Of a stretch of DNA of 64,000 bases, positions 7,284 through 45,393 are shown piece after piece. The stretch lies in sequence record PX880103.1. One strand, written 5' to 3'. Positions within the stretch are counted from its first letter, which is position 1. Every line of letters begins with the position of its first letter. The stretch comes from a phage. The position numbers and the translations under genes are program-made. Below the pieces are notes generated by a model. It saw only the letters and a program-made list of their open reading frames with translations, searched no databases and was not told the DNA's origin.

Positions 7284-8484
<1,201 letters not shown>

Positions 8485-9919: not shown

Positions 9920-11507
<1,588 letters not shown>

Positions 11508-11533: not shown

Positions 11534-12712
11534 TTAAAAGTATTTTTTAAAACTCATCATAACTTTATCATCAACGTCATTATCAATCTGTGCTACAAGA
11601 TAAGATGACAGTTCTACTTCTTGCGGCGCGGATTGAACATTATCAGAATTAAGATATTCACGAATCCAAGGATATGGATGTTTAACCGGAGCATCGGTAA
11701 TTGGGCATGGAAGACCACACTGTTTCATACGAGATACAGTTAAGTAATCAATAAAGCTCCACATGCTATTTGTATTTAATCCAGGAACATCGCCATCTTT
11801 AAATAAATGAACTGCCCAATCTTTTTCTTGGCGGTTAACTTCCATGAAAATATCAACTGCTTCTTGTTCACACTCTTGAGCAATTTTAACCCATTCATCG
11901 CCATCAGTGCCAAGTTGAAGTTGACGAATAATATATTGAGTGCCTTTAAGGTGAAGCTGCTCATCACGTGCAATGAACTTCATAATCTTGGCATTACCTT
12001 CCATGATTTCCATATTCTTATGGAAGTTAAAAGTGCATGCGAAAGATACATAAAAACGAATAGCTTCTAAGGCATTAATAACGTGCAAACAGAGGTAAAG
12101 AGATTTCATTAAAGCACGTTTAGCTTCGACTTCATGTTTAATAGCTCGGTTTAAACGAAAGTCGGCATCAGGAGATTCTTTAGCTAGTTCTACAAATTCT
12201 TTAGCATTTTCCCATTCACGGGTTTTAATCAGAACATCATCATAATAGCGACCGATAGATTCAGCACGTTTCATAATAGCTTCATCTAATACAATCTCAT
12301 CAAATACCTTCGATGGATCAGTATAAAGATTTCGCATGATATGTGTATATGAACGACTGTGAATAGTTTCACTAAAAGTCCATGTAGCAACCCATGTATC
12401 AAGGCTTGGGTCTGAAATTAATGACATAAGTACAGCAGACGGCGCACGACCCTGAATGCTATCCAAAAGTGATTGATACTTCAAATTGTTAGTAAAAATA
12501 TTTTGCTGATACTGAGGAAGCTTATTAAACTGCGCAGCATCCATCATTAAGTTTACTTCTTCAGGCCGCCAGAAAAATGACAATTGCTTTTCGGTCAAAT
12601 CTTCAAAAACTTTATGGCGTTGAATATCATAACGCGCAATACCAAGACCTGAACCAAAAAACATGGGTTCTTTTAAAACATCAACTGGATTTGTATTAAA
12701 AACTGTGCTCAT
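11534..12712 (-). CDS. nrdB: ribonucleotide reductase small subunit, uninterrupted (no intron)
   Basis: 392-aa continuous ORF with class Ia R2 features; T4 nrdB carries a group I intron, none here. Confidence 0.92.
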   Translation of the reverse strand: MSTVFNTNPVDVLKEPMFFGSGLGIARYDIQRHKVFEDLTEKQLSFFWRPEEVNLMMDAAQFNKLPQYQQNIFTNNLKYQSLLDSIQGRAPSAVLMSLISDPSLDTWVATWTFSETIHSRSYTHIMRNLYTDPSKVFDEIVLDEAIMKRAESIGRYYDDVLIKTREWENAKEFVELAKESPDADFRLNRAIKHEVEAKRALMKSLYLCLHVINALEAIRFYVSFACTFNFHKNMEIMEGNAKIMKFIARDEQLHLKGTQYIIRQLQLGTDGDEWVKIAQECEQEAVDIFMEVNRQEKDWAVHLFKDGDVPGLNTNSMWSFIDYLTVSRMKQCGLPCPITDAPVKHPYPWIREYLNSDNVQSAPQEVELSSYLVAQIDNDVDDKVMMSFKKYF

Positions 12713-12763: not shown

Positions 12764-15028
12764 TCATAATTTACAGGATGAACAATCTTCAGCTTTTGGA
12801 GTTTCTATTTCATAATCATCAGTACCAGAACCATCGCGGGTATTATGGTAATAGAAATTTTTTCCGCCAAAATACCAGAAATACAAAAGGTCATCAATCA
12901 TTATTGACATTGGAACCTTTCCTTTTGGAAAAATCTGCGGGTCATAGTATGTATTTGCTGAAGCTGATTGACATACCCATTTCAGCATAATAGCTACCTG
13001 CGTAAGATAAGGTTTATTACCTTTCTTAGCTAATTTCCACGTATAATCATAAAGGTCTATGTTATGCTCAATATTGGGCACGACTTGATTAAAGGAACCC
13101 TCTTTTGATTCTTTAACAGAGACTGGTCCACGTGGAGGCTCGATACCATTTGTACTGTTAGAAACTTGGGAAGATGACTCACACGGCATAAGTGCTGATA
13201 ATGTGCTATTACGGATGCCAAAAAGCTTAAGGTCTTCCCGCAGCGACGACCAGTCACAAACGTATTTTGGAGCTGCAATTTGGTCAATCTTTTTATTGTA
13301 CCAGTCGATAGGTAATTCGCCTCGAGACCAACGAGTGTCTGAATAATATTCGCAAGGTCCTTTTTCTTTGGCGAGCTTAATGGATGCTTTAATGAGTCCA
13401 TACTGTAATCTCTCAAATAGTTCATGTGTTAAATCGTTAGCATCTTCATAAGAAGCAAAGTTACTTGCCAGCCAAGCTGCATAGTTAGTAACACCTACAC
13501 CGAGGTTACGACGCTTTTTAGCTTTTTCTGCTTCAGGAACTGGATATCCTTGGTAATCCAAAAGATTATCAAGAGCACGAACTTGAACTTCTGCCAATTC
13601 ATTAATTTTATCTTGGTCTTGCCAATCGAAGTTATCCAACACAAATGCAGATAACGTGCACAAGCCAATTTCAGCATCAGGACTATTCACATCATTTGTT
13701 GGAATAGCAATTTCACAGCACAAGTTACTCTGACGGATAGGTGCCTTTTCACGAATAAACGGAGTATAGTTATTCGTATTATCAATGAACTGTACATAAA
13801 TCCTTGCTGTTCCTGAACGTTCAGTCATGAGCAATTCAAATAGTTCACGGGCTTTAATACGCTTTTTACGAATATTAGGGTCTTTTTCTGCTGCTTCGTA
13901 TAATTCACGGAAACGGTCTTGGTCTTTAAAATAAGAATAATAAAGCTCGCCACCCATTTCATGCGGACTGAATAAAGTAATGTAATCGTTCTTTCCAAAA
14001 CGTTCCATCATTAGGTCATTCAGTTGAACGCCATAATCCATATGACGAATACGGTTTTCTTCTACGCCTTTGTTATTTTTCAAAACGAGAAGATTTTCAA
14101 CTTCCAAATGCCAAATAGGATAATAAGCAGTAGCAGCGCCGCCACGAATTCCACCCTGTGAACATGATTTAACTGCAGTCTGAAAATGTTTCCAAAAAGG
14201 AATAACACCAGTATGGCGTACTTCACCCGTGCCAATCTTAGAACCTTCGGCACGAATCATACCAACGTTAATACCAATTCCAGCGCGTTTAGAGATATAT
14301 TCAACAATTGAAGCAGAAGCCTTATTGATAGACTTCAATGAATCTCCTGCCTCAATAACAACACATGAACTAAACTGTCGAGTCGGAGTACGACAACCAG
14401 CCATAATAGGAGTTGGCAGTGAAATTTGTCGAGTAGATACCGCTTCATAAAAACGGATAACATGTTTTAATCTATCAACAGGTTCATCTTGATGCAATGC
14501 CATTCCAATAGCCATAAATGCAAACTGTGGAGTTTCATAAATTTGACCTGTGGTTTTATCTTTAACTAGATATTTTTCTTTTAATTGCATCGCCCCGGAA
14601 TAAGTAAATTCCATATCCCGCTCGTGCTTAATTTTTGATTCTAAAAATGTAATTTCTTCTGCTGAATATTTTGACAATAATTCAGGGTCATATTTACCTT
14701 CATTTACACAGTAAGAAATATGGTCAATAAATGAACGTGGTTCATACTGCCCGTAAACATGCTTACGAAGAGCAAACATTAAACAGCGTGCAGCTACATA
14801 TTGATAATCAGGTTCTTCAACCGAAATAGAATTCGCAGCGGCCTTAATGACAATAGTCTGAATATCGTCAGTTGTCATTCCATCACGGAGATAAGATTTA
14901 ATATTTTCATATAATTCATAAGGATCTACTGATGTTCCTTCAGCTGCCCAAGATAAAACTTTAATAATTTTTTGTGGGTCAAAGCTCTGAGAAACACCAC
15001 TACTTTTGATAACATTAATTAATTGCAT
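12764..15028 (-). CDS. nrdA: ribonucleotide reductase large subunit
   Basis: 754 aa = T4 NrdA length; ATP-cone N-terminus, active-site NLCCEI motif, C-terminal CxxC tail. Confidence 0.95.
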   Translation of the reverse strand: MQLINVIKSSGVSQSFDPQKIIKVLSWAAEGTSVDPYELYENIKSYLRDGMTTDDIQTIVIKAAANSISVEEPDYQYVAARCLMFALRKHVYGQYEPRSFIDHISYCVNEGKYDPELLSKYSAEEITFLESKIKHERDMEFTYSGAMQLKEKYLVKDKTTGQIYETPQFAFMAIGMALHQDEPVDRLKHVIRFYEAVSTRQISLPTPIMAGCRTPTRQFSSCVVIEAGDSLKSINKASASIVEYISKRAGIGINVGMIRAEGSKIGTGEVRHTGVIPFWKHFQTAVKSCSQGGIRGGAATAYYPIWHLEVENLLVLKNNKGVEENRIRHMDYGVQLNDLMMERFGKNDYITLFSPHEMGGELYYSYFKDQDRFRELYEAAEKDPNIRKKRIKARELFELLMTERSGTARIYVQFIDNTNNYTPFIREKAPIRQSNLCCEIAIPTNDVNSPDAEIGLCTLSAFVLDNFDWQDQDKINELAEVQVRALDNLLDYQGYPVPEAEKAKKRRNLGVGVTNYAAWLASNFASYEDANDLTHELFERLQYGLIKASIKLAKEKGPCEYYSDTRWSRGELPIDWYNKKIDQIAAPKYVCDWSSLREDLKLFGIRNSTLSALMPCESSSQVSNSTNGIEPPRGPVSVKESKEGSFNQVVPNIEHNIDLYDYTWKLAKKGNKPYLTQVAIMLKWVCQSASANTYYDPQIFPKGKVPMSIMIDDLLYFWYFGGKNFYYHNTRDGSGTDDYEIETPKAEDCSSCKL

Positions 15029-15345: not shown

Positions 15346-15562
15346 ATTGTTTTTCCGTTAAAACAGTAATATCGTAGTAACAGTCAGAAGAAGTTTTAAC
15401 TGTGGAAATTTTATTATCAAAATACTCACGAGTCATTTTATGAGTATAATATTTTTTACCATAAATGATAATAGGCTGTTCTGGTCCTGGAACTTCTAAC
15501 TCGCTTGGGTTAGGAAGTGTAAAAAGAACGGCACCAGAAGTATCTTTAAATCGTAAAATCAT
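15299..15562 (-). CDS. hypothetical protein (nrdA.2 position)
   Basis: 87-aa ORF. Confidence 0.5.
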
Positions 15563-16419
15563 ATTGCCATTTTCCCTTTAATTGCTGGATGCGATTCATA
15601 ATTTTCAAGGATAAAATCTTTCGGTTTCATGTATTCAGTTAACCAGTAAAGCTGTGTTTCGGTGTCACAATTTCCAAACTCTATAGGCCAATCAATTTTA
15701 AGTTCACACAGTTCTTTAGGCTCACGACGTAAAATTTCTTTACATTGCTCAGTATGATTCATATAGATGTGAGTATTACCACCAGAAAATATCAAATCTC
15801 CTGGGATAAGATTACACATCTTAGCCACAATATGCGTCAAGGCAGCATACGAGGCAATGTTGAATGGCAAGCCTAAGAAAACATCTACACTTCTTTGGTA
15901 CCATTGTAAATCAAGATAACCATTACGCACATTAAACTGATAGAACATATGACAGGGCGGTAATGCCATTTGATTGATTTCAGCTGGATTCCATGCTGAA
16001 ACGATTTGACGTCGATCAGTTGGTAATTTTTTAATACGATCAATAGTTTCAACTAATTGATCCACACCACCGAAATCACGCCATTGTTTACCGTATATAG
16101 GACCAAGTTCACCACTATGATATCCTAGGTCTTTAGCCTGGTTTTCATAGTTATCGTCCCAAATAGTTTTACCTTGAATAAGACTACCATGAGTGCGAAG
16201 ACGTAAATCATTAACATTGGTAGAACCGGAAATAAACCATAGAAGCTCAGCAATGCATGCATTCCAAGCGAGCTTCTTAGTTGTTACTGCAGGAAAACCT
16301 TTAGTTAAATCCCAGCGTAATTTAGTACCGAACAAAGCAATTGTTCCTGTGCCTGTTCGGTCATCGGTTTCATAACCATTTTCAAAAATGTCTTTAATTA
16401 AATCTTGGTATTGTTTCAT
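15559..16419 (-). CDS. td: thymidylate synthase, uninterrupted (no intron)
   Basis: 286 aa = T4 Td length; ThyA motifs incl. active-site PPCH; single continuous ORF. Confidence 0.95.
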
Positions 16420-28037: not shown

Positions 28038-31000
28038 ATGGCTACTTTAAAACAAATACAATTTAAAAGAAGCAAAACAGCAGGTGCACGTCCTGCTGCT
28101 TCAGTATTAGCCGAAGGTGAATTGGCTATAAACTTAAAAGATAGAACACTTTTTACTAAAAATGATACAGGTCAAATTATCGACCTTGGCTTCGCTAAAG
28201 GTGGACAAGTCGATGGTGATGTGACTATTAATGGTAAATTAACATTAAATGGTGCGTATGTTCAGACGCTGGCTGGTATTAATACCACGGGTGGTATTAA
28301 TGCTGGAGCCGCTATAAGTGCAACAACTTATTATGCTCGGTCTGGTTCTTATTATGCTCGTGCTCCAGATGCCGATACGAATACACATGTTTGGTTTGAA
28401 AATAGCAATGGTATAGAACGTGGCGTGATTTGGGCTATTCCGAACACTTCAGACCTTGGCCAGGTCAAAATTCGGGCGAAAACCACAGGTGGTGTTTTCG
28501 CCGGCGAGTACAGTTTCCGCTCTGATGGCCGATTTGATGTTCCTGTAGCAGTTAAAATCGGCGGAGCAGCGATGCTAACCAAAGACGGCAACATTACATC
28601 AGGTTCATTGTTTGGTGGTAACCTTAACAACTATTTGACTTCTATTAAAAATGACATTGTTGCTGGTGATAATAAGAAAGTAAGTAAAACCGGTGACACT
28701 ATGTCCGGTAACTTGACTATTAACGCTAACTTAAAAGTCGAAAACTCTAATGGAACGTATGTTGATTTAGGTTCAGAGAACTCTAGTAACTATAGCAGAT
28801 TAACTCTTGCTCGTAAAGTTGGAGATGGCGCTGGTGTAGCAATGCTTAAAGTTACTCCTGAAGGAAACGTGCAATTTGGTTATCAACCTACAGTTGCTAC
28901 TCCATCTCCTACCAAGTATATTCTAATTAAACCTAACGGTCTTGAAGTAGAAGGTGATTTAGTTTTTAAGCAAACTTATCGTGGTATTGAAGAAGCATTT
29001 GATATTACTGATCAGACTATTGACCTTAATAGCCTTATTATTAGAGGATCAGATTTAGGTACTCGTAAGCTGTATAAATGCAGATCATCTGGCGGTGGTT
29101 CTAATATATTGAACAAACCTACATCTGACGGCAACTTTACTCTTGAAGTTCTGTCTTTACGCAAGGTTTCTGATAGCGATTGGTCATGTAAGCAGACCTT
29201 TACTACAAAGAACAATAATGTTGTAGGCGTATATGTTCGCTACGGACAAGGCGGCTCATGGACCGCATGGCAAGAAGTTGTATCTGGTGTTCAGCCAATT
29301 AAATTAGGTGGTACTGGAGCAACTTCTGTAGCTGCTGCCCGTAATAACCTTGGTGTTGGTGAAGGCCAAACTGTAACATTCGGTAATTTAGTTACCAATG
29401 ATTTAACTGCAAACAAACAAGTTAAAATCGGCGGAGTCGGAATAGCTGATGCATTAAGAATTTGGAATGCCGAATACGGTGCTATTTTCCGTCGTTCAGA
29501 AACAGCATTACATATTATCCCGACTCCTAAAGATGCTGGTGAAAATGGTGGAATAAGTAATCTCCGCCCATTAAGTATTGCTCTTAATAATGGTATGGTA
29601 CAAATGCGCCATTCTGTTACGTTAGGCGATGACGGCAGAGGTGGCAATATGATTACCGTAGACAATGATAATAAACTTGTTGCTGTTACTAGTCATAGCC
29701 GCATTTCTCCTAATTACCGTATGCAGTTAGGTCAGGCTGCGTACATTGATGCAGAATGTACTGATGCTGTTCGCCCGGCTGGAGCTGGTTCTTTTGCTTC
29801 ACAGAATAATGAAAACGTCCGTGCTCCGTTCTATATGAATATTGATAGAGCTGATACTGGTACATATGTTCCGATTTTGAAACAACGTTATGTTCAAGGT
29901 AACGGCTGCTATTCATTAGGGACTTTAATTAATAATGGTAATTTCCGAGTTCATTACCATGGAGGCGGAGATAACGGTTCTACAGGTCCACAGACTGCTG
30001 ATTTTGGATGGGAATTTATTAAAAACGGTGATTTTATTTCACCTCGCGATTTAATAGCAGGTAAAGTCAGATTTGATAGAACTGGTAATATTACTGGAGG
30101 TTCAGGAAACTTTGCCAATTTAAATACCACGTTAAACCGTAAAGTTAATGTTGGCGGTTGGGCTGGTAGTTCTGATGGTGGATGGTACAAATTTGCTACG
30201 GTAACAATTCCTCAAGGTACTGGCACAGTAACTTTTAAAATTTCCGGTGGAGCTGGTTTTAATTTTAAAAGCTATAACCAAGCTTCTATTGCTGAGATAG
30301 TTCTTCGCACAGGTAATAATCCTAAAGGCATAAACGCTGTACTATGGAACAGGTCAGACCTGAGTTTTAATCAGATAGCTACTATGAATACATCTGGTGA
30401 TACTTATGATGTATACGTGTTCTGTGACGGTTATACAAATGCATTAGTGGTTGAATATTCTTGTAGTGAAAACTCTTCGGTAACCGTAGTCGGTCTTAAC
30501 GGAGGCATTCAGCCAGTTGTTGATGCATTGCCTGAGGGACATGTTGTAGGTAAAACAGTTCGTCTGTTAAATAATATTGGCGGAACTTTCGCAGCTGGCG
30601 AATCTGACGTTGTTACTCGTGGTGAATACGTTGCTGATAATCAAAAAGGCATGCGTATTAAATCTAACGGTAATAATATCGGTTCTAATGCTGCTATACT
30701 TCGAAATGACGGCGGAAGTTTTTATATTTTAGCTACAGATAAAAATACAGCAGAAAAAGCCGATGCGGCTAATGGTGATTGGAACTCATTGCGTCCTTTT
30801 ACAATAAGCATGACTACCGGTGAAGTATCAATGAATAACGGCATAACTGTTCGTAACTATGCCACATTCTATAATGATATTGTTCTCAAAGATAATGGTT
30901 ATATTCACTTTAATAAGTCTGGCGCTAATCCAAGAAGCATGAGTATATTCCATGCCGGAGATGCCACACGTGGTAACCGTATTGAAATTGCTGATGATTC

Positions 31001-31580
31001 AAGTTATTTGGTTTATTTCCAACGTTTACCGGGCGGCGCTAACCAGTGTACATTTAACTCTGCTGCTCTTTCGGGTATAACACAGACTAACTCTTTTGGT
31101 GTCAATACATCAAACGCACTTGGTGGAAATAGTATAACGTTTGGTGATAATGACACCGGTATTAAGCAAAATGGCGATGGATTATTAGACATATATGCGA
31201 ACAGCGCGCAAGTGTTCCGTTTCCAAAATGGTGATTTGTACTCATACAAAAATATAAATGCTCCAAACGTTTATATTCGTTCTGATATTCGTTTAAAATC
31301 CAACTTCAAACCTATCGAAAATGCACTTGATAAAGTTGAAAAACTTAACGGTGTCATTTACGATAAAGCTGAATACATCGGTGGAGAGGCAATTGAAACT
31401 GAAGCGGGTATTGTGGCTCAAACGTTACAAGACGTTTTACCAGAAGCTGTCCGTGAAACAGAAGACAGCAAGGGTAATAAAATACTCACTGTTTCTTCTC
31501 AAGCCCAGATTGCTCTTCTGGTTGAAGCTGTGAAAACACTTTCTTCTCGCGTAAAAGAACTCGAATCTAAACTTATGTAA
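28038..31580 (+). CDS. 37: gp37 long tail fibre distal subunit with C-terminal intramolecular-chaperone-like domain
   Basis: 1180 aa; conserved N-terminus MATLKQIQFKRSKTAGARP; C-terminal ~110 aa (SDIRLKSNF...coiled coil) resembles auto-processing chaperone domains of T2/S16-type fibres. Confidence 0.92.
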   Translation: MATLKQIQFKRSKTAGARPAASVLAEGELAINLKDRTLFTKNDTGQIIDLGFAKGGQVDGDVTINGKLTLNGAYVQTLAGINTTGGINAGAAISATTYYARSGSYYARAPDADTNTHVWFENSNGIERGVIWAIPNTSDLGQVKIRAKTTGGVFAGEYSFRSDGRFDVPVAVKIGGAAMLTKDGNITSGSLFGGNLNNYLTSIKNDIVAGDNKKVSKTGDTMSGNLTINANLKVENSNGTYVDLGSENSSNYSRLTLARKVGDGAGVAMLKVTPEGNVQFGYQPTVATPSPTKYILIKPNGLEVEGDLVFKQTYRGIEEAFDITDQTIDLNSLIIRGSDLGTRKLYKCRSSGGGSNILNKPTSDGNFTLEVLSLRKVSDSDWSCKQTFTTKNNNVVGVYVRYGQGGSWTAWQEVVSGVQPIKLGGTGATSVAAARNNLGVGEGQTVTFGNLVTNDLTANKQVKIGGVGIADALRIWNAEYGAIFRRSETALHIIPTPKDAGENGGISNLRPLSIALNNGMVQMRHSVTLGDDGRGGNMITVDNDNKLVAVTSHSRISPNYRMQLGQAAYIDAECTDAVRPAGAGSFASQNNENVRAPFYMNIDRADTGTYVPILKQRYVQGNGCYSLGTLINNGNFRVHYHGGGDNGSTGPQTADFGWEFIKNGDFISPRDLIAGKVRFDRTGNITGGSGNFANLNTTLNRKVNVGGWAGSSDGGWYKFATVTIPQGTGTVTFKISGGAGFNFKSYNQASIAEIVLRTGNNPKGINAVLWNRSDLSFNQIATMNTSGDTYDVYVFCDGYTNALVVEYSCSENSSVTVVGLNGGIQPVVDALPEGHVVGKTVRLLNNIGGTFAAGESDVVTRGEYVADNQKGMRIKSNGNNIGSNAAILRNDGGSFYILATDKNTAEKADAANGDWNSLRPFTISMTTGEVSMNNGITVRNYATFYNDIVLKDNGYIHFNKSGANPRSMSIFHAGDATRGNRIEIADDSSYLVYFQRLPGGANQCTFNSAALSGITQTNSFGVNTSNALGGNSITFGDNDTGIKQNGDGLLDIYANSAQVFRFQNGDLYSYKNINAPNVYIRSDIRLKSNFKPIENALDKVEKLNGVIYDKAEYIGGEAIETEAGIVAQTLQDVLPEAVRETEDSKGNKILTVSSQAQIALLVEAVKTLSSRVKELESKLM

Positions 31581-31610: not shown

Positions 31611-32390
31611 ATGGCAATTGTAGGTGTTCCTGGCTGGATTGGTGAATCTGCCGTGAATGAAACTGGACAACGTTGGATGGATGCTGCGATGAGAGCAGTT
31701 CGTGTTTCAGTTCCTGGTTGGATGAGCTCAATGGCTGGACAATCTAAAGAAATTATTCACACGCTTGGAGCAGACCATAACTTCAATGGTCAATGGTTCC
31801 GAGATAGGTGTTTTGAGGCAGGTAGTACACCTATAGTGTTTAATATTACAGGTGATTTAGTATCATATTCTAAAGATGTTCCTTTATTTTTCATGTATGG
31901 AGATACACCGAATGAATATGTTCAGTTGAATATACACGGCGTAACGATGTATGGACGTGGCGGTAATGGCGGTAGCAATAGTCCTGGCTCAGCTGGAGGT
32001 CATTGTATTCAAAACGATATTGGTGGGAGACTAAGAATTAATAATGGTGGAGCTATTGCAGGCGGCGGTGGCGGCGGTGGCGGCGGTAACAGGGGTAGAC
32101 TATCATTTGGTGGTGGCGGTGGTCGCCCATTCGGTGCTGGCGGGTCTTCCTCTCATATGAGTTCCGGTGCAACTGCTGGCACCATTTCCGCTCCGGGTAA
32201 AGGATCTGTTGGTGAGGGGTCTCTTAGTGCATATACAGGCGGTGCTGGCGGTAACGTTGGTGCTGCTGGAGGAAGATGTAATACTCAAGGTACCGGTACA
32301 GAATATAACGGAGGAGCTGCTGGTTATGCCGTCATAGGGTCCGCTCCAACGTGGATAAATGTTGGAGCAATATATGGTCCAAGAGTATAA
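31611..32390 (+). CDS. 38: gp38 receptor-binding adhesin (T2/S16 type, glycine-rich motifs)
   Basis: 259 aa; conserved N-terminus then poly-Gly blocks ([23 protein letters not shown]) separated by variable segments. Confidence 0.85.
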
Positions 32391-35935: not shown

Positions 35936-36085
35936 TTACTGCATGACTGTGATAACTGTCATGATAACACGTTGAATTCCAAACGCAAGAAGACCTCCTG
36001 CTACGGCTGGAACAACACCTAACCCTGCCAGTAAAATGCTACCAGATACTAATGCAGCGCTTGTAATACCAATGAATGGACTCAT
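35936..36085 (-). CDS. small hydrophobic membrane peptide (49 aa)
   Basis: Hand-translated MSPFIGITSAALVSGSILLAGLGVVPAVAGGLLAFGIQRVIMTVITVMQ; ATGA overlap with gene 52 stop. Confidence 0.4.
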   Translation of the reverse strand: MSPFIGITSAALVSGSILLAGLGVVPAVAGGLLAFGIQRVIMTVITVMQ

Positions 36086-37410
36086 TTGATTTCCTCTAAA
36101 TCTTTGGTGTATTCAGTAACTACATCAGTAGTTTTCCAATATTCGTTTTCTTCTTTTTTAGCTTTAGCTTCTTCAGCAAGTTTCTTTGCTTCATCGGAAG
36201 TCATATGAAAAATATTCATTCCAACTAGTTTATCAACATAAGAAGAATACATATCGATTTTCGAAAGTTCTTCGGTCAGTTCTTTACGAGTTTTACCCTG
36301 TACAACAATTTCACCTGAAATTACTTTCTTAATGAAATGTGCCTTGGCAAAGGCTAAACGAAAAGCTGACTCAGTTTCTTTAATTTTGTTATCAATTCGT
36401 TTTTGGACATAAGTTTTACGAACTTCAACAAAGTCTTTAATTAAATCAACTACGTTATCGTAAACTTGTAGTTTTCCTTTCTCATTAATAACCGTAATAT
36501 TCTGAGAACGACGCTCAATCAACCCGAAGTCTTTCATAATTTTTGCATGGCGTTCTTCTTCGTTATCGCTCAAAGAGTATTCTTTGCGGAATTTAACTTT
36601 GAAGCCAAAACCATGCTCACCACAAGCATCATCCCATGTAATGAAGCCTTTATCTTCAAGTGGGTCTAAGATTTTACTCACATAAGTTTCACGATCATAC
36701 TTGTACGGAATCTCAGTGATATGCATTTGAGTTCGTGAAGTAAACTTATATGTTCCACGAATTTCATATTGCCCATCAATTTCAACGACTTCACCGCGAA
36801 ATTCTGGGAATTCTACCTTCGGTTTAGTTACTTTCTTTCCTTGAAGAGCTTGCAGTACAGCTTTCTTGACAGAAGAAACACTATGAGGAAGAATGTAAGT
36901 TGCATAACCAGTTGCAATACCGGAAACGCCATTAAGAAGAACAGTAGGAATAATAGGCAAATAGAAAGCAGGCGGAATGTGTTCTTTATCTTGATGTACC
37001 GGAGCATATTCAGTATCTTTATATACGTTATAGAAATTTTTACTTACACGAGCAAAAATATAACGACTTGCTGCTGCTTTTTGAACGGTACGAGAACCAA
37101 AGTTTCCTTGACCATCTAACAGAGGAAAGTTATTATTCCAGGTGTTAGCCATCAAAGCGCCCGCATCTTGTGCAGAGTTTTCGCCATGGTGATATCCAAG
37201 GTCCGCTACACCACCTGCGATAGAAGCGAGTTTGTGAAACTTATCTTTATTTCCTCGCGCCAAATCAAGAGCTCGAGCAATAACAAATCGTTGAACTGGC
37301 TTAAATCCATCAATCATATTTGGAATAGCACGATTTTCAACCGTGTACATAGCATAAGCCAATGCTTCATTATCAATGATACTTTTTAAATCGCGATTAT
37401 TCAGTTGCAT
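36082..37410 (-). CDS. 52: gp52 DNA topoisomerase II medium subunit (GyrA-like)
   Basis: 442 aa = T4 gp52 length; topoisomerase breakage-reunion-type motifs; adjacent to motA. Confidence 0.93.
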   Translation of the reverse strand: MQLNNRDLKSIIDNEALAYAMYTVENRAIPNMIDGFKPVQRFVIARALDLARGNKDKFHKLASIAGGVADLGYHHGENSAQDAGALMANTWNNNFPLLDGQGNFGSRTVQKAAASRYIFARVSKNFYNVYKDTEYAPVHQDKEHIPPAFYLPIIPTVLLNGVSGIATGYATYILPHSVSSVKKAVLQALQGKKVTKPKVEFPEFRGEVVEIDGQYEIRGTYKFTSRTQMHITEIPYKYDRETYVSKILDPLEDKGFITWDDACGEHGFGFKVKFRKEYSLSDNEEERHAKIMKDFGLIERRSQNITVINEKGKLQVYDNVVDLIKDFVEVRKTYVQKRIDNKIKETESAFRLAFAKAHFIKKVISGEIVVQGKTRKELTEELSKIDMYSSYVDKLVGMNIFHMTSDEAKKLAEEAKAKKEENEYWKTTDVVTEYTKDLEEIK

Positions 37411-37414
37411 AAAT

Positions 37415-37555
37415 TTACCATACTAGTGAATGTAGTGCCATAATAACATCAGAAATGAAAAGCACGACTTGAATTAATCCGAACATTACTCCATAATATA
37501 GTGCTACCAATAAAGTAGCAAGGGCTAATGAATAGCCCAAGATTTTCTTAATCAT
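37415..37555 (-). CDS. small hydrophobic membrane peptide (46 aa)
   Basis: Hand-translated MIKKILGYSLALATLLVALYYGVMFGLIQVVLFISDVIMALHSLVW. Confidence 0.4.
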   Translation of the reverse strand: MIKKILGYSLALATLLVALYYGVMFGLIQVVLFISDVIMALHSLVW

Positions 37556-37706
37556 TAGTGGATAACAACACAAATGTTAAATATGCACACATACCCTGGG
37601 CTAAAGCTTGTGAAAACACACTGCTAGCATCGATACAGATAGTTAAAACACATGCTACTATCCAACAAATAAATGAAATAACTCCTAATAATTTTGCGAT
37701 ATTCAT
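37548..37706 (-). CDS. ac: small membrane protein (52 aa), candidate Ac (acridine sensitivity) equivalent
   Basis: Hand-translated MNIAKLLGVISFICWIVACVLTICIDASSVFSQALAQGMCAYLTFVLLSTND; size and position between 52 and stp fit T4 ac (from memory). Confidence 0.4.
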   Translation of the reverse strand: MNIAKLLGVISFICWIVACVLTICIDASSVFSQALAQGMCAYLTFVLLSTND

Positions 37707-37713
37707 ATTTTCC

Positions 37714-37794
37714 TCACTGACGTCCGAATACGCCTTTGGTTTTAAGATTGTTACGATAGAACTGCATCACATGTTCGTTATGGAAATTACTCAT
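37714..37794 (-). CDS. stp: Stp peptide (activator of host PrrC anticodon nuclease)
   Basis: 26-codon [29 protein letters not shown], identical to the T4 Stp peptide as I recall it; TAATG overlap with the ndd stop. Confidence 0.8.
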
Positions 37795-38249
37795 TAATAT
37801 GCCTGTAAAACAAATTTAAAGTTATCAGCCAACATACGATTCATTTCTTCAAGTGTTTGATACTCAGAATGATGATTACGAGTAAACGCCAAAGCTAACT
37901 GACCTTTTCCAAATCCCGTCGTTAGAGGTTTCATCTTAGAAGCAGGCAAATAAAACACTGTGTATGGAACATTGTTATTTGCAATAGTACGCGCAAGTTG
38001 AGACCGGCGTTGACGAATATGACTTAAAACCGCACTGAATCCTTGCTTAGAACGCTGATTACCTACATAAAATCGTGCAGATACGCATGGATTACTAAAT
38101 GGACCACCGAGTTTACTCACTAAAAAGTAAAATCCAGGTTTAGACAAAATGTCTTTGTGCGGAGTTCCCAAAAACCACTCACCACCCTTGATTGTACCAA
38201 TAACAGTAGCGCCTGCATTATTCAGATCAATAACAGTCATATATTTCAT
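37794..38249 (-). CDS. ndd: Ndd nucleoid disruption protein
   Basis: 151 aa from [26 protein letters not shown] (internal ATG; track start is further upstream); matches T4 Ndd as recalled. Confidence 0.88.
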
Positions 38250-41126: not shown

Positions 41127-43304
41127 TTAGGCCGCAAGGGCCTTCATAGTTTTAGCGATTTGGGAAACTTCATCATCACTTAAAGAGTTGCGATAACCGA
41201 TGAAGTCGGAAACAATACGGAATTTCTTGGTAAACTCAGCAACCATTTTATCACTGTTTTTTGAAGCATTATTTGATAATACATCAAAAAGATTAGTTAC
41301 TGTCCAGATGTCATGACCGATGGTATCTTTTCCACCATTGAAATATACGCCACGTAATGAACTAACTATATTAGCGAGTCGTGTATATTCTTCAGAAACT
41401 TCATCTGTACTGAAGTACTTCATCATAAAATCTAGTTCAGGATACTTGATAATTTTATCAATATATCGTTGAGCTGAACTTGAATAACCTACATACTTAT
41501 CATAATCTACATCATCAAAAGCATCTACATATAAATCACGCAGAGTTTCAAAAATACATTGGCACTGACCGAGTTCTTTTACCTTTTTCTGTAAAAGCGG
41601 ACGAATAACATAAAATTCATTAATGCCAATAAGATTAGCCATACGAATCAAAATATTCATAGATGGATGACAAAGAGATGTAGTACCATCCATAGAGAAA
41701 ATATCAGAACGATGCATATACGCTACATAACCAGTAATTTCATCTGCTTCTGATGTGAGCGTAAATAATTCCTCTTTTTCCCAGCGCCCGTCTTTAATTT
41801 CAAACTTAAATGCTGTAGCAGCTTTAGGACGAGGAGCTTTACTTTTAACTACCTTTGGAATATAACTTTTTACTAAAGCTTCAATTTCTGACAAATAATG
41901 AATGTTAACTTCATCACTTTCAAACATCGCCATAATATCAGGAAGTAAATCAATCTGCGATTCTACTTCTGGATTAATAAACAGAAGGCGTTCGTTATGA
42001 TGAATATTCAAAGTGTTATTAAATTCACTATCATCTAACGCTCGTGCTAATCCACGAACAATATTAACACGATTTTTAATATTATCAATAACGATATTAA
42101 TTTTTGTTGTATTAATACCAAACAGACGATAACTTGATGCAACGGCTGAAGTTTCATGACTTTGCTTAATGCGCTTCAGTCGAGGGTCAAGATTTACTTC
42201 ATACACAACTCCTGCATTGCATAACTTACTGTCAGGTTCAAACATGCTCTGCATCTTTTTATATGACAGATTTTTAGTCGTGAATTTGACTGAATTACTA
42301 ATCATATAATCTCGAGCAGAATACCCCATCTTCATCAATTCACGATATGTGTGACGAGGAGATGTAGATTCTTTAAATCGTTTTACATCTTCATTAAATG
42401 CTTTCTCACTAAGTTCTTTAACTCGTTCAATAATATTTTTACGAGTACGATCATCCAGTGAAAGAGCCTCACGAGATGGAGCAATATCAAGTGAACCCAT
42501 TGGAAACTTAATGTAATTCACTTCATTGCGGATGCTTAACCAGTTACGATCTCTAATAACACCATCGATAGGATAAACAATACCGCCATAGATAGCATAT
42601 AATCCACCGCGATCAGGCCAGTATCTTTCTGGATTTACGCCGTAATAATCATCGAAATCCGGAAAATAATCAATTTCGCGGTCAAGACCATTAATGATAG
42701 CCAAATCTTTGAATGGTCGCATGATATAAGAAACTTCATAAGCAAAGTTTCTAAAGTCTTTTTCTTCAACTGGAACTACGATTTCAATACCAGTTTTATC
42801 ATCTGGACCCATTTCTTTTACGAATGTAGGTTTAATCTGTGGACCATCACCATCCATGTAAGCTACATAACCACGAATTTCACCTTTATGATACGAAGTA
42901 ATACTAAATGTATCAGTATAACTAAACGGAGATTTAGAACCTAAACCAAATCCGCCAATGAAATCGTTAGATTCAGCCTTAGATGAACTGAAGTATGAAT
43001 TATACAGTCCAGGAGAATTATCATCACCCTGAATATCAAAATCACTCATACCCGGACCAAAATCTCGACAAACAAATCGTGGATCTAAACGTCCAGGAAC
43101 TTGTATGATAAATTTTTCAGGATTTCCATTGAGAGCATGGGCATCAATCATGTTAGTAATCAATTCACGAACTACTGCGCGAATCTTGTTTGTATACAAA
43201 TCAGATGACAGAATTTTAAATACTTTAGGAGATGCTGTGATGCTAAATGCTTTTGATTTAGAACCATTACCAAGAATTGTTTCTTTTTCAGTGGTGATAA
43301 TCAT
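41127..43304 (-). CDS. rIIA: RIIA
   Basis: 725 aa = T4 RIIA length; GHKL-ATPase-like N-terminal region. Confidence 0.93.
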
Positions 43305-43534: not shown

Positions 43535-43575
43535 GCCCAATTAATTATACCACATCCTTGTGGTAAAGTAAACTA
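43535..43575 (-). promoter_or_regulatory. sigma70-type early promoter upstream of rIIA.1/rIIA
   Basis: Minus-strand GTTTAC and TATAAT-like elements (plus: ttaattataccacatccttgtggtaaagtaaac). Confidence 0.45.
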
Positions 43576-45393
43576 CTGGCTCATCCATTCTTTACGAAGG
43601 TCAGCATTATCTCCCATGAGCATTTCAAAAAGCTCTTTCCAGTTCTCAGGAAGTTTAACAACATCATATACTGGGTTTTGAATCATCTCACGATATTCAG
43701 ATTTTTCCAAAGAGCCAAGTCCTTTAATATAACGGATGCTATGTTTAGGTAGAGCATCTTTGGCACTCTCATATTCAGCGACTGTATAAAACCATTCTTG
43801 TTTTTTACCGACCTGAGCGATGATTACAGGAGTTTTGACAAAGCGAATTCTTCCTTGTTCAAACAGTTCTGGCCAATTACTAAAAAATCCGAGCAGAGAA
43901 GGATAAATGCTTCCTAGACCATCATGGTCAGCATCAGTCATAATAGCAATATTATGATAATTCAAGTTTTCAGCTTTTTCACCGAGAACTAATCCAGTGA
44001 TTGCGCAAATATCAAATAGTTCTTTGTTTTTAAGCATATCGGCATATGACATACCCCAGCTATTAAGAACTTTACCGCGTAATGGATAACCACCGTGAAG
44101 TTCTTTATCACGAACATCAATAAGATATCCGATAGCAGAATCACCCTCGGTTAAGAACAATGTAGTGTCAGCATCTTTACCGCAAAGATTCGCTTTAATA
44201 TGTTTATGAACCTTAGCTTTAGAAGCCTTTTTAGCTGCTTTAGTTTCTGCTGCTTTTTCTGCTGCCAATTTACGAGCTAATGCTGCTTCAATAATTGGCA
44301 TTAGAATTGCTTCATTATTTAGAATAGCGCGTGAAATCTTTTTAGCATCAAGTTGAATATGACTACGAATTTCACCAAATGGAGAAGTCAAACGCTCTTT
44401 AGTTTGAGAGTCAAATCGCATGTTTTTCATATCGCGAACAAACATAACGATAGTCAAACATTCTTTAACACGTGCTTTAGTCACATCAATTTTGAACTTA
44501 CGTTTGATTTGTGGAATAAGGTCTTCACAAATATCATCCATAACACAGTCAATGTGATGGCCACCATTCTTAGTATGAATGTTATTGACGTATGTTAATT
44601 GACGAAAACCATCCGGTGAACGACCAACCGCAATAGAACAATTTTCTTGTTCTTGAACGATAGCATGTTCATCATATTGGCGTGCGTATTTCTTAAAATT
44701 ACCCTGAACCTTTTTACCATTAAAGGTAAATTGAATATCAGGATAAACAACAGCAAGTGTTTGGAGACGATCTAGTGTAATGTCAAGATAAACTTGGGAC
44801 AGCTCATTAGTTTCAAATGACATAAAATCAGGAATGAAAGTAACACGGGTTCCTTTCCATTTTCCAGGAATATCTTCCCATGATTTATTTTCCATGCCGT
44901 TTGAACAACGAACTACAATATTATTTTGACCATCGCCAGTTTCACCAACAAACATCACAGAAAAAATGTTTGTCAAACTAGAACCAACACCATTCATACC
45001 GCCAGTGACGCGTTCTTTATCATCACCAAAGTTACCACCTGCTTTTGGAATAGTCCATGCAGCAACAGGACCAGGAATTTCTTCACCGGTAGGTGTTTTA
45101 ACCATTGCCTGCGGAATACCACGACCGTTATCTTCAACTGTTACTTGATTGTTTTTAATAGTAACATTAATTTTATTTGCGAATTTAAACTTAGTACGAA
45201 TACCTTCATCTACTGAGTTATCGATAATTTCATCAATAAGCTTAACAAGACCAGGTACATACTGAACACTTTCCCATTTACCAAACAGAAAGCGCTCATG
45301 CATTTCATTAGCAGAAGAGCCAATGTACATGCCGCTACGCTTTTTGATATGTTCAATATCGCTCAGAATTTTAATTTCATTCTTAATCATCAC
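43573..45393 (-). CDS. 39: gp39 DNA topoisomerase II large subunit (GyrB-like), unsplit
   Basis: 606 aa continuous; GHKL ATPase and TOPRIM motifs; in T4 this protein is split into genes 39 and 60. Confidence 0.9.
   Translation of the reverse strand: MMIKNEIKILSDIEHIKKRSGMYIGSSANEMHERFLFGKWESVQYVPGLVKLIDEIIDNSVDEGIRTKFKFANKINVTIKNNQVTVEDNGRGIPQAMVKTPTGEEIPGPVAAWTIPKAGGNFGDDKERVTGGMNGVGSSLTNIFSVMFVGETGDGQNNIVVRCSNGMENKSWEDIPGKWKGTRVTFIPDFMSFETNELSQVYLDITLDRLQTLAVVYPDIQFTFNGKKVQGNFKKYARQYDEHAIVQEQENCSIAVGRSPDGFRQLTYVNNIHTKNGGHHIDCVMDDICEDLIPQIKRKFKIDVTKARVKECLTIVMFVRDMKNMRFDSQTKERLTSPFGEIRSHIQLDAKKISRAILNNEAILMPIIEAALARKLAAEKAAETKAAKKASKAKVHKHIKANLCGKDADTTLFLTEGDSAIGYLIDVRDKELHGGYPLRGKVLNSWGMSYADMLKNKELFDICAITGLVLGEKAENLNYHNIAIMTDADHDGLGSIYPSLLGFFSNWPELFEQGRIRFVKTPVIIAQVGKKQEWFYTVAEYESAKDALPKHSIRYIKGLGSLEKSEYREMIQNPVYDVVKLPENWKELFEMLMGDNADLRKEWMSQ

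Follow-up and report, generated by a model that had tools for sequence, protein, structure and literature searches.

T4-type stp, ac and 52.1 in the ndd-52 interval of a T-even phage

The interval between ndd and gene 52 in the phage DNA analysed here (a single stretch of 64,000 nucleotides, referred to below as the window) most probably carries the orthologues of T4 stp, ac and 52.1, lying in the tail of an ndd-stp-ac-52.1-52 unit, and the published Stp/PrrC mechanism is expected to apply to it; we put the probability of this reading at about 0.95, and no feature of the sequence speaks against it. The identity and position of the three genes, their intact reading frames, the purifying selection acting on them and the presence of the tRNA repair enzymes are matters of direct observation. 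A first-pass annotation had described the interval as an 'stp-ac-like' cluster. The genes are there, but '-like' is too weak a word for them, since they are orthologues rather than look-alikes.

That stp, ac and 52.1 occupy their usual T4 place is already known, and the interval corresponds to the textbook locus of T4, found here in one of its relatives. Knowledge of the stp gene, of its sequence and of its effect on PrrC dates from the 1980s and 1990s, and the T4 reference annotation already lists all three genes. What the present analysis offers in practice concerns annotation. A 601-bp region matches 566 phage records, most of them at 95-99% identity; among the best 40 of these 566 records, approximately six name stp under the match. 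Gene callers that work with a length threshold routinely omit stp, a functionally characterised gene of 26 codons, and scans with a 60-aa threshold display a spurious antisense ORF at stp-ac instead of the genes. The features discussed in the text are collected in Table 1.

Table 1. Features of the window, with their coordinates, strands and assignments
Feature	Coordinates	Strand	Length and assignment
pseT (Pnk, polynucleotide 5'-kinase/3'-phosphatase)	7284-8189	minus	PF25109, E = 3.1e-60, and AAA_33 kinase domain
rnlA (gene 63; Rnl1, RNA ligase 1)	9920-11044	minus	374 aa; PF09511 and PF20819
nrdB	11534-12712	minus	392 aa
nrdA	12764-15028	minus	
td	15559-16419	minus	286 aa
ORF at gene 37 position	28038-31580	plus	C-terminal Peptidase_S74 chaperone domain
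gp38	31611-32390	plus	259 aa; Gp38 adhesin (PF05268)
gene 52 (topoisomerase II medium subunit)	36082-37410	minus	442 aa; PF00521 (DNA_topoisoIV), E = 9.1e-77; 99.8% identical to T4 gp52
52.1	37415-37555	minus	46 codons from ATG, MIKKILGYS...HSLVW; predicted membrane peptide
ac	37548-37706	minus	52 codons, MNIAKLLGV...LLSTND; hydrophobic; acridine sensitivity/resistance locus
Antisense ORF	37558-37797	plus	79 codons; spurious
stp	37714-37794	minus	26 codons, 26 aa; predicted type Ic restriction inhibitor and PrrC activator
ndd (nucleoid disruption protein)	37794-38249	minus	151 aa; PF06591, E = 2.9e-91; 98.7% identical to T4 Ndd
ORF taken to be rIIA	41127-43304		725 aa
gene 39 (topoisomerase large subunit)	43573-45393	minus	606 aa; GyrB ATPase, DNA_gyraseB and TOPRIM_C

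Gene order and expression of the cluster

The placing of the cluster between ndd and gene 52 was part of the first-pass annotation, and both flanks agree with it, having the Pfam matches given in Table 1 and lying in T4 order. The Ndd match covers residues 17-167 of a 167-aa ORF that begins with GTG. On one strand the T4 reference NC_000866 lists 52, 52.1 (46 aa), ac (51 aa), stp (26 aa) and ndd, and the order, spacing and overlaps are the same here. At the ndd/stp junction, TAATG, the TAA stop of ndd and the ATG of stp share one base (A). At the stp/ac junction (TGAGGAAAATATG) the TGA of stp lies inside a GAGGA Shine-Dalgarno motif, from which 4 nt lead to the ATG of ac. The last 8 nt of ac are also the first 8 of 52.1, ATG included (ATGATTAA), and the 52.1 stop is followed by 4 nt and then by the ATG of gene 52. 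The genes ndd-stp-ac-52.1-52 thus form a compact minus-strand unit; as the start and stop codons of neighbouring genes abut or overlap, coupled translation from read-through early transcripts is probable.

No MotA-box middle promoter was found near the cluster, the nearest minus-strand match (41245-41268) falling inside the 725-aa ORF that we take to be rIIA. Sigma-70-like sites numbered 18, against 14.7 ± 4.0 in shuffled sequence, which is no excess, and no promoter is claimed. In view of these two results the transcription units are ones that we infer. Stp, Pnk and Rnl1 have been described as delayed-early (review, PMC3014915), a class that would fit read-through from upstream early promoters.

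Stp and the PrrC circuit

It had been claimed from the letters alone that a 26-codon ORF in the interval encodes a peptide identical to T4 Stp. Comparison with NP_049878 (the translation of NC_000866 165505-165585) bears this out, with 26 of 26 residues identical. T4 stp, whose product belongs to PF08133 ('Anticodon nuclease activator family'), also has the same place after ndd and the same one-base stop/start overlap; the two genes differ at four nucleotides, all synonymous, and the protein is unchanged. The peptide matches PF08133 over positions 1-26 of 26 (E = 2e-21; 75.3 bits, cut-off 25) and PHROG 6763 (E = 4.4e-21). A peptide at least 99% identical to it is encoded in 423 phage records, and a sequence search of the PDB found no entry for Stp among solved structures.

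Selection on the peptide can be read from its alleles. The present stp differs from seven T4-type alleles that encode the same peptide by 2-6 synonymous and no non-synonymous substitutions, and one further T4-type allele has a single amino-acid change. With approximately 13 synonymous and 65 non-synonymous sites in the gene, these 0-1 non-synonymous differences give a pN of at most 0.015, against a pS of up to 0.45.

Stp relieves type Ic restriction (EcoprrI, EcoR124I), though not type Ia, and the anticodon nuclease PrrC, kept latent through its association with EcoprrI, is unmasked by Stp together with GTP hydrolysis, dTTP and unmodified target DNA; the cut tRNA is then healed and sealed by Pnk and Rnl1 (PMC3014915, PMC1484252). 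The activation of PrrC has been interpreted as the host's answer to the inhibition of type Ic enzymes by Stp (PMC3014915, PMC12707154). A 2025 review still lists the way in which Stp inhibits EcoprrI as unknown (PMC12707154).

Because the Stp peptide is identical, the published T4 mechanism should apply to the present phage. Stp, which is hydrophilic and basic (GRAVY -1.03), would act as a soluble basic 26-mer that binds to the type Ic restriction-modification complex of the host (EcoprrI, and also EcoR124I) and so blocks restriction. In prr+ hosts this action would unmask the associated PrrC nuclease, which would cut tRNA-Lys 5' to the wobble base; Pnk would heal the cut tRNA-Lys and Rnl1 would reseal it, allowing infection to go on. 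On such a scheme the most fitting description of Stp is that of a type Ic anti-restriction peptide sensed by PrrC. We infer the functional steps of the scheme, for Stp, PrrC, Pnk and Rnl1 as well as for Ac (below), from the literature.

The repair enzymes were said at first reading to be encoded in the same window, and domain and structure matches place both of them there. Pnk, which has the phosphatase and kinase domains of PNKP, aligns over its full length with the T4 Pnk structure 1LTQ (300 residues, E = 2.9e-189), and Rnl1 aligns end to end with the T4 Rnl1 structure 2C5U (374 residues, E = 1.6e-251); both are thus complete and almost identical to the T4 enzymes of these crystal structures. 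Compared with 1LTQ, the Pnk ORF begins with one additional methionine (MMKKII...) and lacks one residue, and its substitutions are concentrated at residues 60-105, flanked by conserved kinase segments. Translation of Pnk probably starts at the second methionine.

Ac, gp52.1 and the coding strand

Two overlapping membrane peptides of 52 and 46 aa had been reported to follow stp, one of them probably Ac. Both ORFs were found there, with their 8-nt overlap, and their hydropathy supports a membrane location. The 52-aa peptide (MNIAKLLGVISFICWIVACVLTICIDASSVFSQALAQGMCAYLTFVLLSTND) proves on alignment with T4 ac to be Ac, and the 46-aa peptide (MIKKILGYSLALATLLVALYYGVMFGLIQVVLFISDVIMALHSLVW) to be T4 gp52.1.

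Ac consists of T4 Ac (NP_049877, acridine resistance protein; 51 aa) with one additional threonine (codon ACT) and no substitutions. The T4 peptide ends ...LLSND and the present one ...LLSTND, the extra residue being close to the C-terminus; place, hydrophobic character and the Shine-Dalgarno motif over the stp stop are shared. The 52-aa peptide is the usual form among relatives (L002-L007 and L028, in the numbering used here for the loci compared). Ac matches PHROG 2501 (E = 3.7e-25) and no Pfam family at E up to 1. Its GRAVY is 1.42 and its 19-aa windows reach 2.74, values compatible with membrane insertion. Deletion of T4 ac leads to acriflavine resistance, and expression of Ac sensitises E. 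coli (bioRxiv 10.1101/2025.06.30.662393; PMC13250531); a single 2025 preprint has proposed that Ac blocks AcrAB-TolC efflux (bioRxiv 10.1101/2025.06.30.662393). In the present phage Ac may likewise be a small inner-membrane peptide, and its presence would make infected cells accumulate acridines.

The gp52.1 peptide is identical to T4 NP_049876 at 45 of 46 positions, the sole change being A14T; both have 46 aa and the 8-nt overlap with ac. It matches the Pfam family PF24129 (DUF7396) over model positions 1-46 of 46 (E = 5.4e-23; 81.3 bits, cut-off 27) and PHROG 3595 (E = 1.2e-25). With a GRAVY of 1.68, which supports membrane insertion, it is predicted to be a conserved membrane peptide.

In ac, as in stp, the differences from relatives are few and mostly silent (1-6 synonymous, 0-1 non-synonymous), and between the present 52.1 and that of the diverged group pS is 0.36-0.45 and pN approximately 0.05 (pN/pS approximately 0.13). 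As differences from relatives are almost all synonymous, stp, ac and 52.1 are all judged to be under purifying selection.

Such comparisons are needed, since 35 ORFs with a length of 20 aa or more fall wholly or partly within the 2.3 kb around the cluster, so that short ORFs alone prove nothing and the evidence has to be comparative. The same abundance of chance ORFs might be taken to mean that the minus-strand micro-ORFs are fortuitous and that the true gene is the 79-codon ORF on the plus strand, the only one of at least 60 aa in the interval; stp, ac and 52.1, all shorter than 60 aa, are indeed absent from the 60-aa-threshold ORF track, as the first-pass annotation had pointed out. The comparative evidence, however, makes a plus-strand gene extremely improbable. 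Substitutions are synonymous in the minus-strand frames of stp, ac and 52.1, the minus-strand peptides match curated families with E-values of 1e-21 to 1e-25, and the flanking ndd and gene 52 are on the minus strand, as are nearly all ORFs of that part of the window. The longest antisense open stretch over stp-ac, moreover, shrinks from approximately 81 to 65 codons in the close relatives L006, L007 and L028, in which the span has the same length; it is also 65 codons in L003, whose span has an extra cassette. The antisense ORF was consequently rejected as broken in relatives and as lying opposite to frames in which changes are synonymous. On the minus strand itself, a mechanical ORF list starts 52.1 at a TTG (37573) rather than at the ATG (37555), which would give a 52-aa product and a 26-nt overlap with ac. 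It is very unlikely that this is the real start: the DUF7396 model spans only residues 7-52 of the TTG form, which is exactly the 46-aa form, T4 52.1 is annotated as 46 aa, and homologues in diverged genera have 44-46 aa and start at the aligned methionine. These three grounds led us to reject the TTG form and to keep the ATG, with a product of 46 aa; the extension arises because the ORF lister takes the first start.

Variation of the ndd-52 interval among relatives

To place the cluster among its relatives, 36 IMG/VR loci encoding relatives of Ndd (46-98% identity) were surveyed; ndd and gene 52 could both be located in 34 of them, and the ORFs between the two were listed. Over these 34 loci from T4-like genera the interval is a variable array of cassettes. 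The 52.1 cassette was detected in almost every one of the 34 loci extending to gene 52. The stp cassette is present in the T4-like group and, as two alleles, in ten of the 13 loci in which Ndd is approximately 62% identical and 52.1 most resembles that of T4, and in none of the other loci. In the group with approximately 62% Ndd identity, the T4-type Stp allele is identical at 25 of 25 residues and gp52 is approximately 81-83% identical. Ac-like peptides, recognised by the motif W...TGE[TS]SV.SQ, sometimes occur in two copies, and an unrelated family of 53 aa is scattered among the intervals. A membrane ORF of 57-61 aa directly follows ndd in most diverged loci. Some close relatives (ECp13, 101117BS1) have it too; T4 and the present phage lack it. 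Across loci L008-L039 the membrane-peptide cassettes (Ac-like, 53-aa, 57-aa and 52.1) range from 44 to 61 aa, and their content varies by lineage.

The best 25-kb match to the present phage is 94.5% identical, and the best local match is 99% identical but has a 166-bp insertion. The 57-61-aa ORF after ndd accounts for this 'insertion', which is seen in many of the best matches. In many close relatives the extra membrane ORF between ndd and stp has 57 aa (MKALFVMGYLLVLAL...CGVYE) and shares its last 8 nt with the start of stp, ATG included; in ndd-forward orientation it lies at 1607-1780 in both L002 and L003, and the corresponding junction is at position 37794 of the window. Since the ORF is present in most diverged T4-like loci, its absence from T4 and the present phage looks like a deletion. 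Several unrelated cassettes upstream of 52.1 end in ...ND* and overlap the 52.1 start (AATGATTAA), and these shared ends over the 52.1 ATG suggest that short conserved junctions mediate the exchange of cassettes.

Stp-like peptides in siphophages and the role of Stp

A tblastn search with Stp also matches siphophages of 45-50 kb, over residues 1-19. Stp-like ORFs of 26-27 aa with good ribosome-binding sites occur in several of these phages, namely Tunavirus SA30RD, Tlsvirus Stevie, Henuseptimavirus AS5, Klebsiella phage YX3973 and Skatevirus Skate. The 26-mers of these T1-like phages (e.g. that of Citrobacter phage Stevie, YP_009148772) have the length of T4 Stp and share with it the core MS.[FW]HNEH[VI]MQ[FW][YH]R..[LI]K; they differ in their genomic context, and most are unannotated. 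In an alignment of the T-even and siphophage variants ten columns are invariant (M1, S2, H5, N6, E7, H8, M10, Q11, R14 and K18), all of which are present in the peptide studied here, while the last eight residues are unrelated. Suppressor mutations that abolish Stp function have been found to cluster at residues 4-14, and deletion of the eight C-terminal codons is tolerated (PMC3014915). The invariant columns and the unrelated last eight residues agree with this published mutational map, and the N-terminal core (residues 4-14) is intact in the present phage.

Among the five siphophage records, that of Stevie (L042) is the only one that annotates the peptide, as Stp; the other four do not. The unannotated ORFs lie at 1501-1581 in L040 and in L041, at 601-681 in L043 and at 601-684 in L044, and belong to Drexlerviridae and Skatevirus siphophages of Escherichia, Klebsiella, Enterobacter and Salmonella. 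The idea that the siphophage peptides are a new extension of the family was rejected, as the Stevie copy is already annotated as Stp.

The strict conservation of Stp raises the question of what the peptide is retained for. T-even DNA is hypermodified, containing glucosylated hydroxymethylcytosine, and should need no protection from type I enzymes; nevertheless Stp is near-invariant across several hundred T-even phages, with a pN close to zero where pS reaches 0.45, and a second target is therefore conceivable. It could be that T-even phages keep Stp for a role other than type Ic anti-restriction, such as action on another host target, and that PrrC activation is a side effect confined to rare prr+ hosts. 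The number of records with a virtually identical peptide and its full identity where Ndd is only approximately 62% identical would be in keeping with this, as would the fact that prr is an optional locus (PMC1484252). Against it, no other target of Stp is reported in the literature cited here, and stp is missing from many T4-like genera, which marks it as an accessory gene. The Stp-like peptides of T1-like siphophages, with the same N-terminal core, also speak for anti-restriction: the DNA of these phages is unmodified, so that anti-restriction is useful to them, and the activity of the shared core is therefore probably anti-restriction. Retention for another role is accordingly regarded as unlikely. 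The wider proposal that Stp has a second host target in T-even phages and that, given the swappable Ac-like, 53-aa, 57-aa and 52.1 cassettes, the ndd-52 interval is a hotspot for counter-defence or host takeover rather than a collection of leftovers is similarly doubtful. Type Ic anti-restriction, sensed by PrrC, is the preferred account of the peptide.

The phage as a whole

Taken over the window, the sequence assigns the phage to the genus Tequatrovirus as a mosaic T-even. From pseT to rIIB and gene 39 the gene order is that of T4. Gene 39 is a single ORF here. In T4 the large subunit of the topoisomerase is divided between genes 39 and 60 and its synthesis involves a translational bypass; T2 and T6 have it fused, as here.

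T4 carries group I introns in td and nrdB as well as the homing-endonuclease gene mobE. In the present phage nrdB and td are uninterrupted and the gap between nrdA and nrdB is only 51 bp, for which reasons it appears to lack both introns and mobE. No tRNA gene was detected in the 64-kb window by ARAGORN and no Rfam family, including the intron RNA families, at gathering score.

Downstream of the ORF at the gene 37 position, gp38 matches the Gp38 adhesin family, and the tip of the tail fibre looks to be of T2 type rather than T4 type. According to the remark in the T4 record itself, T4 gp38 is an assembly factor and has no relation to the adhesin of T2 type.
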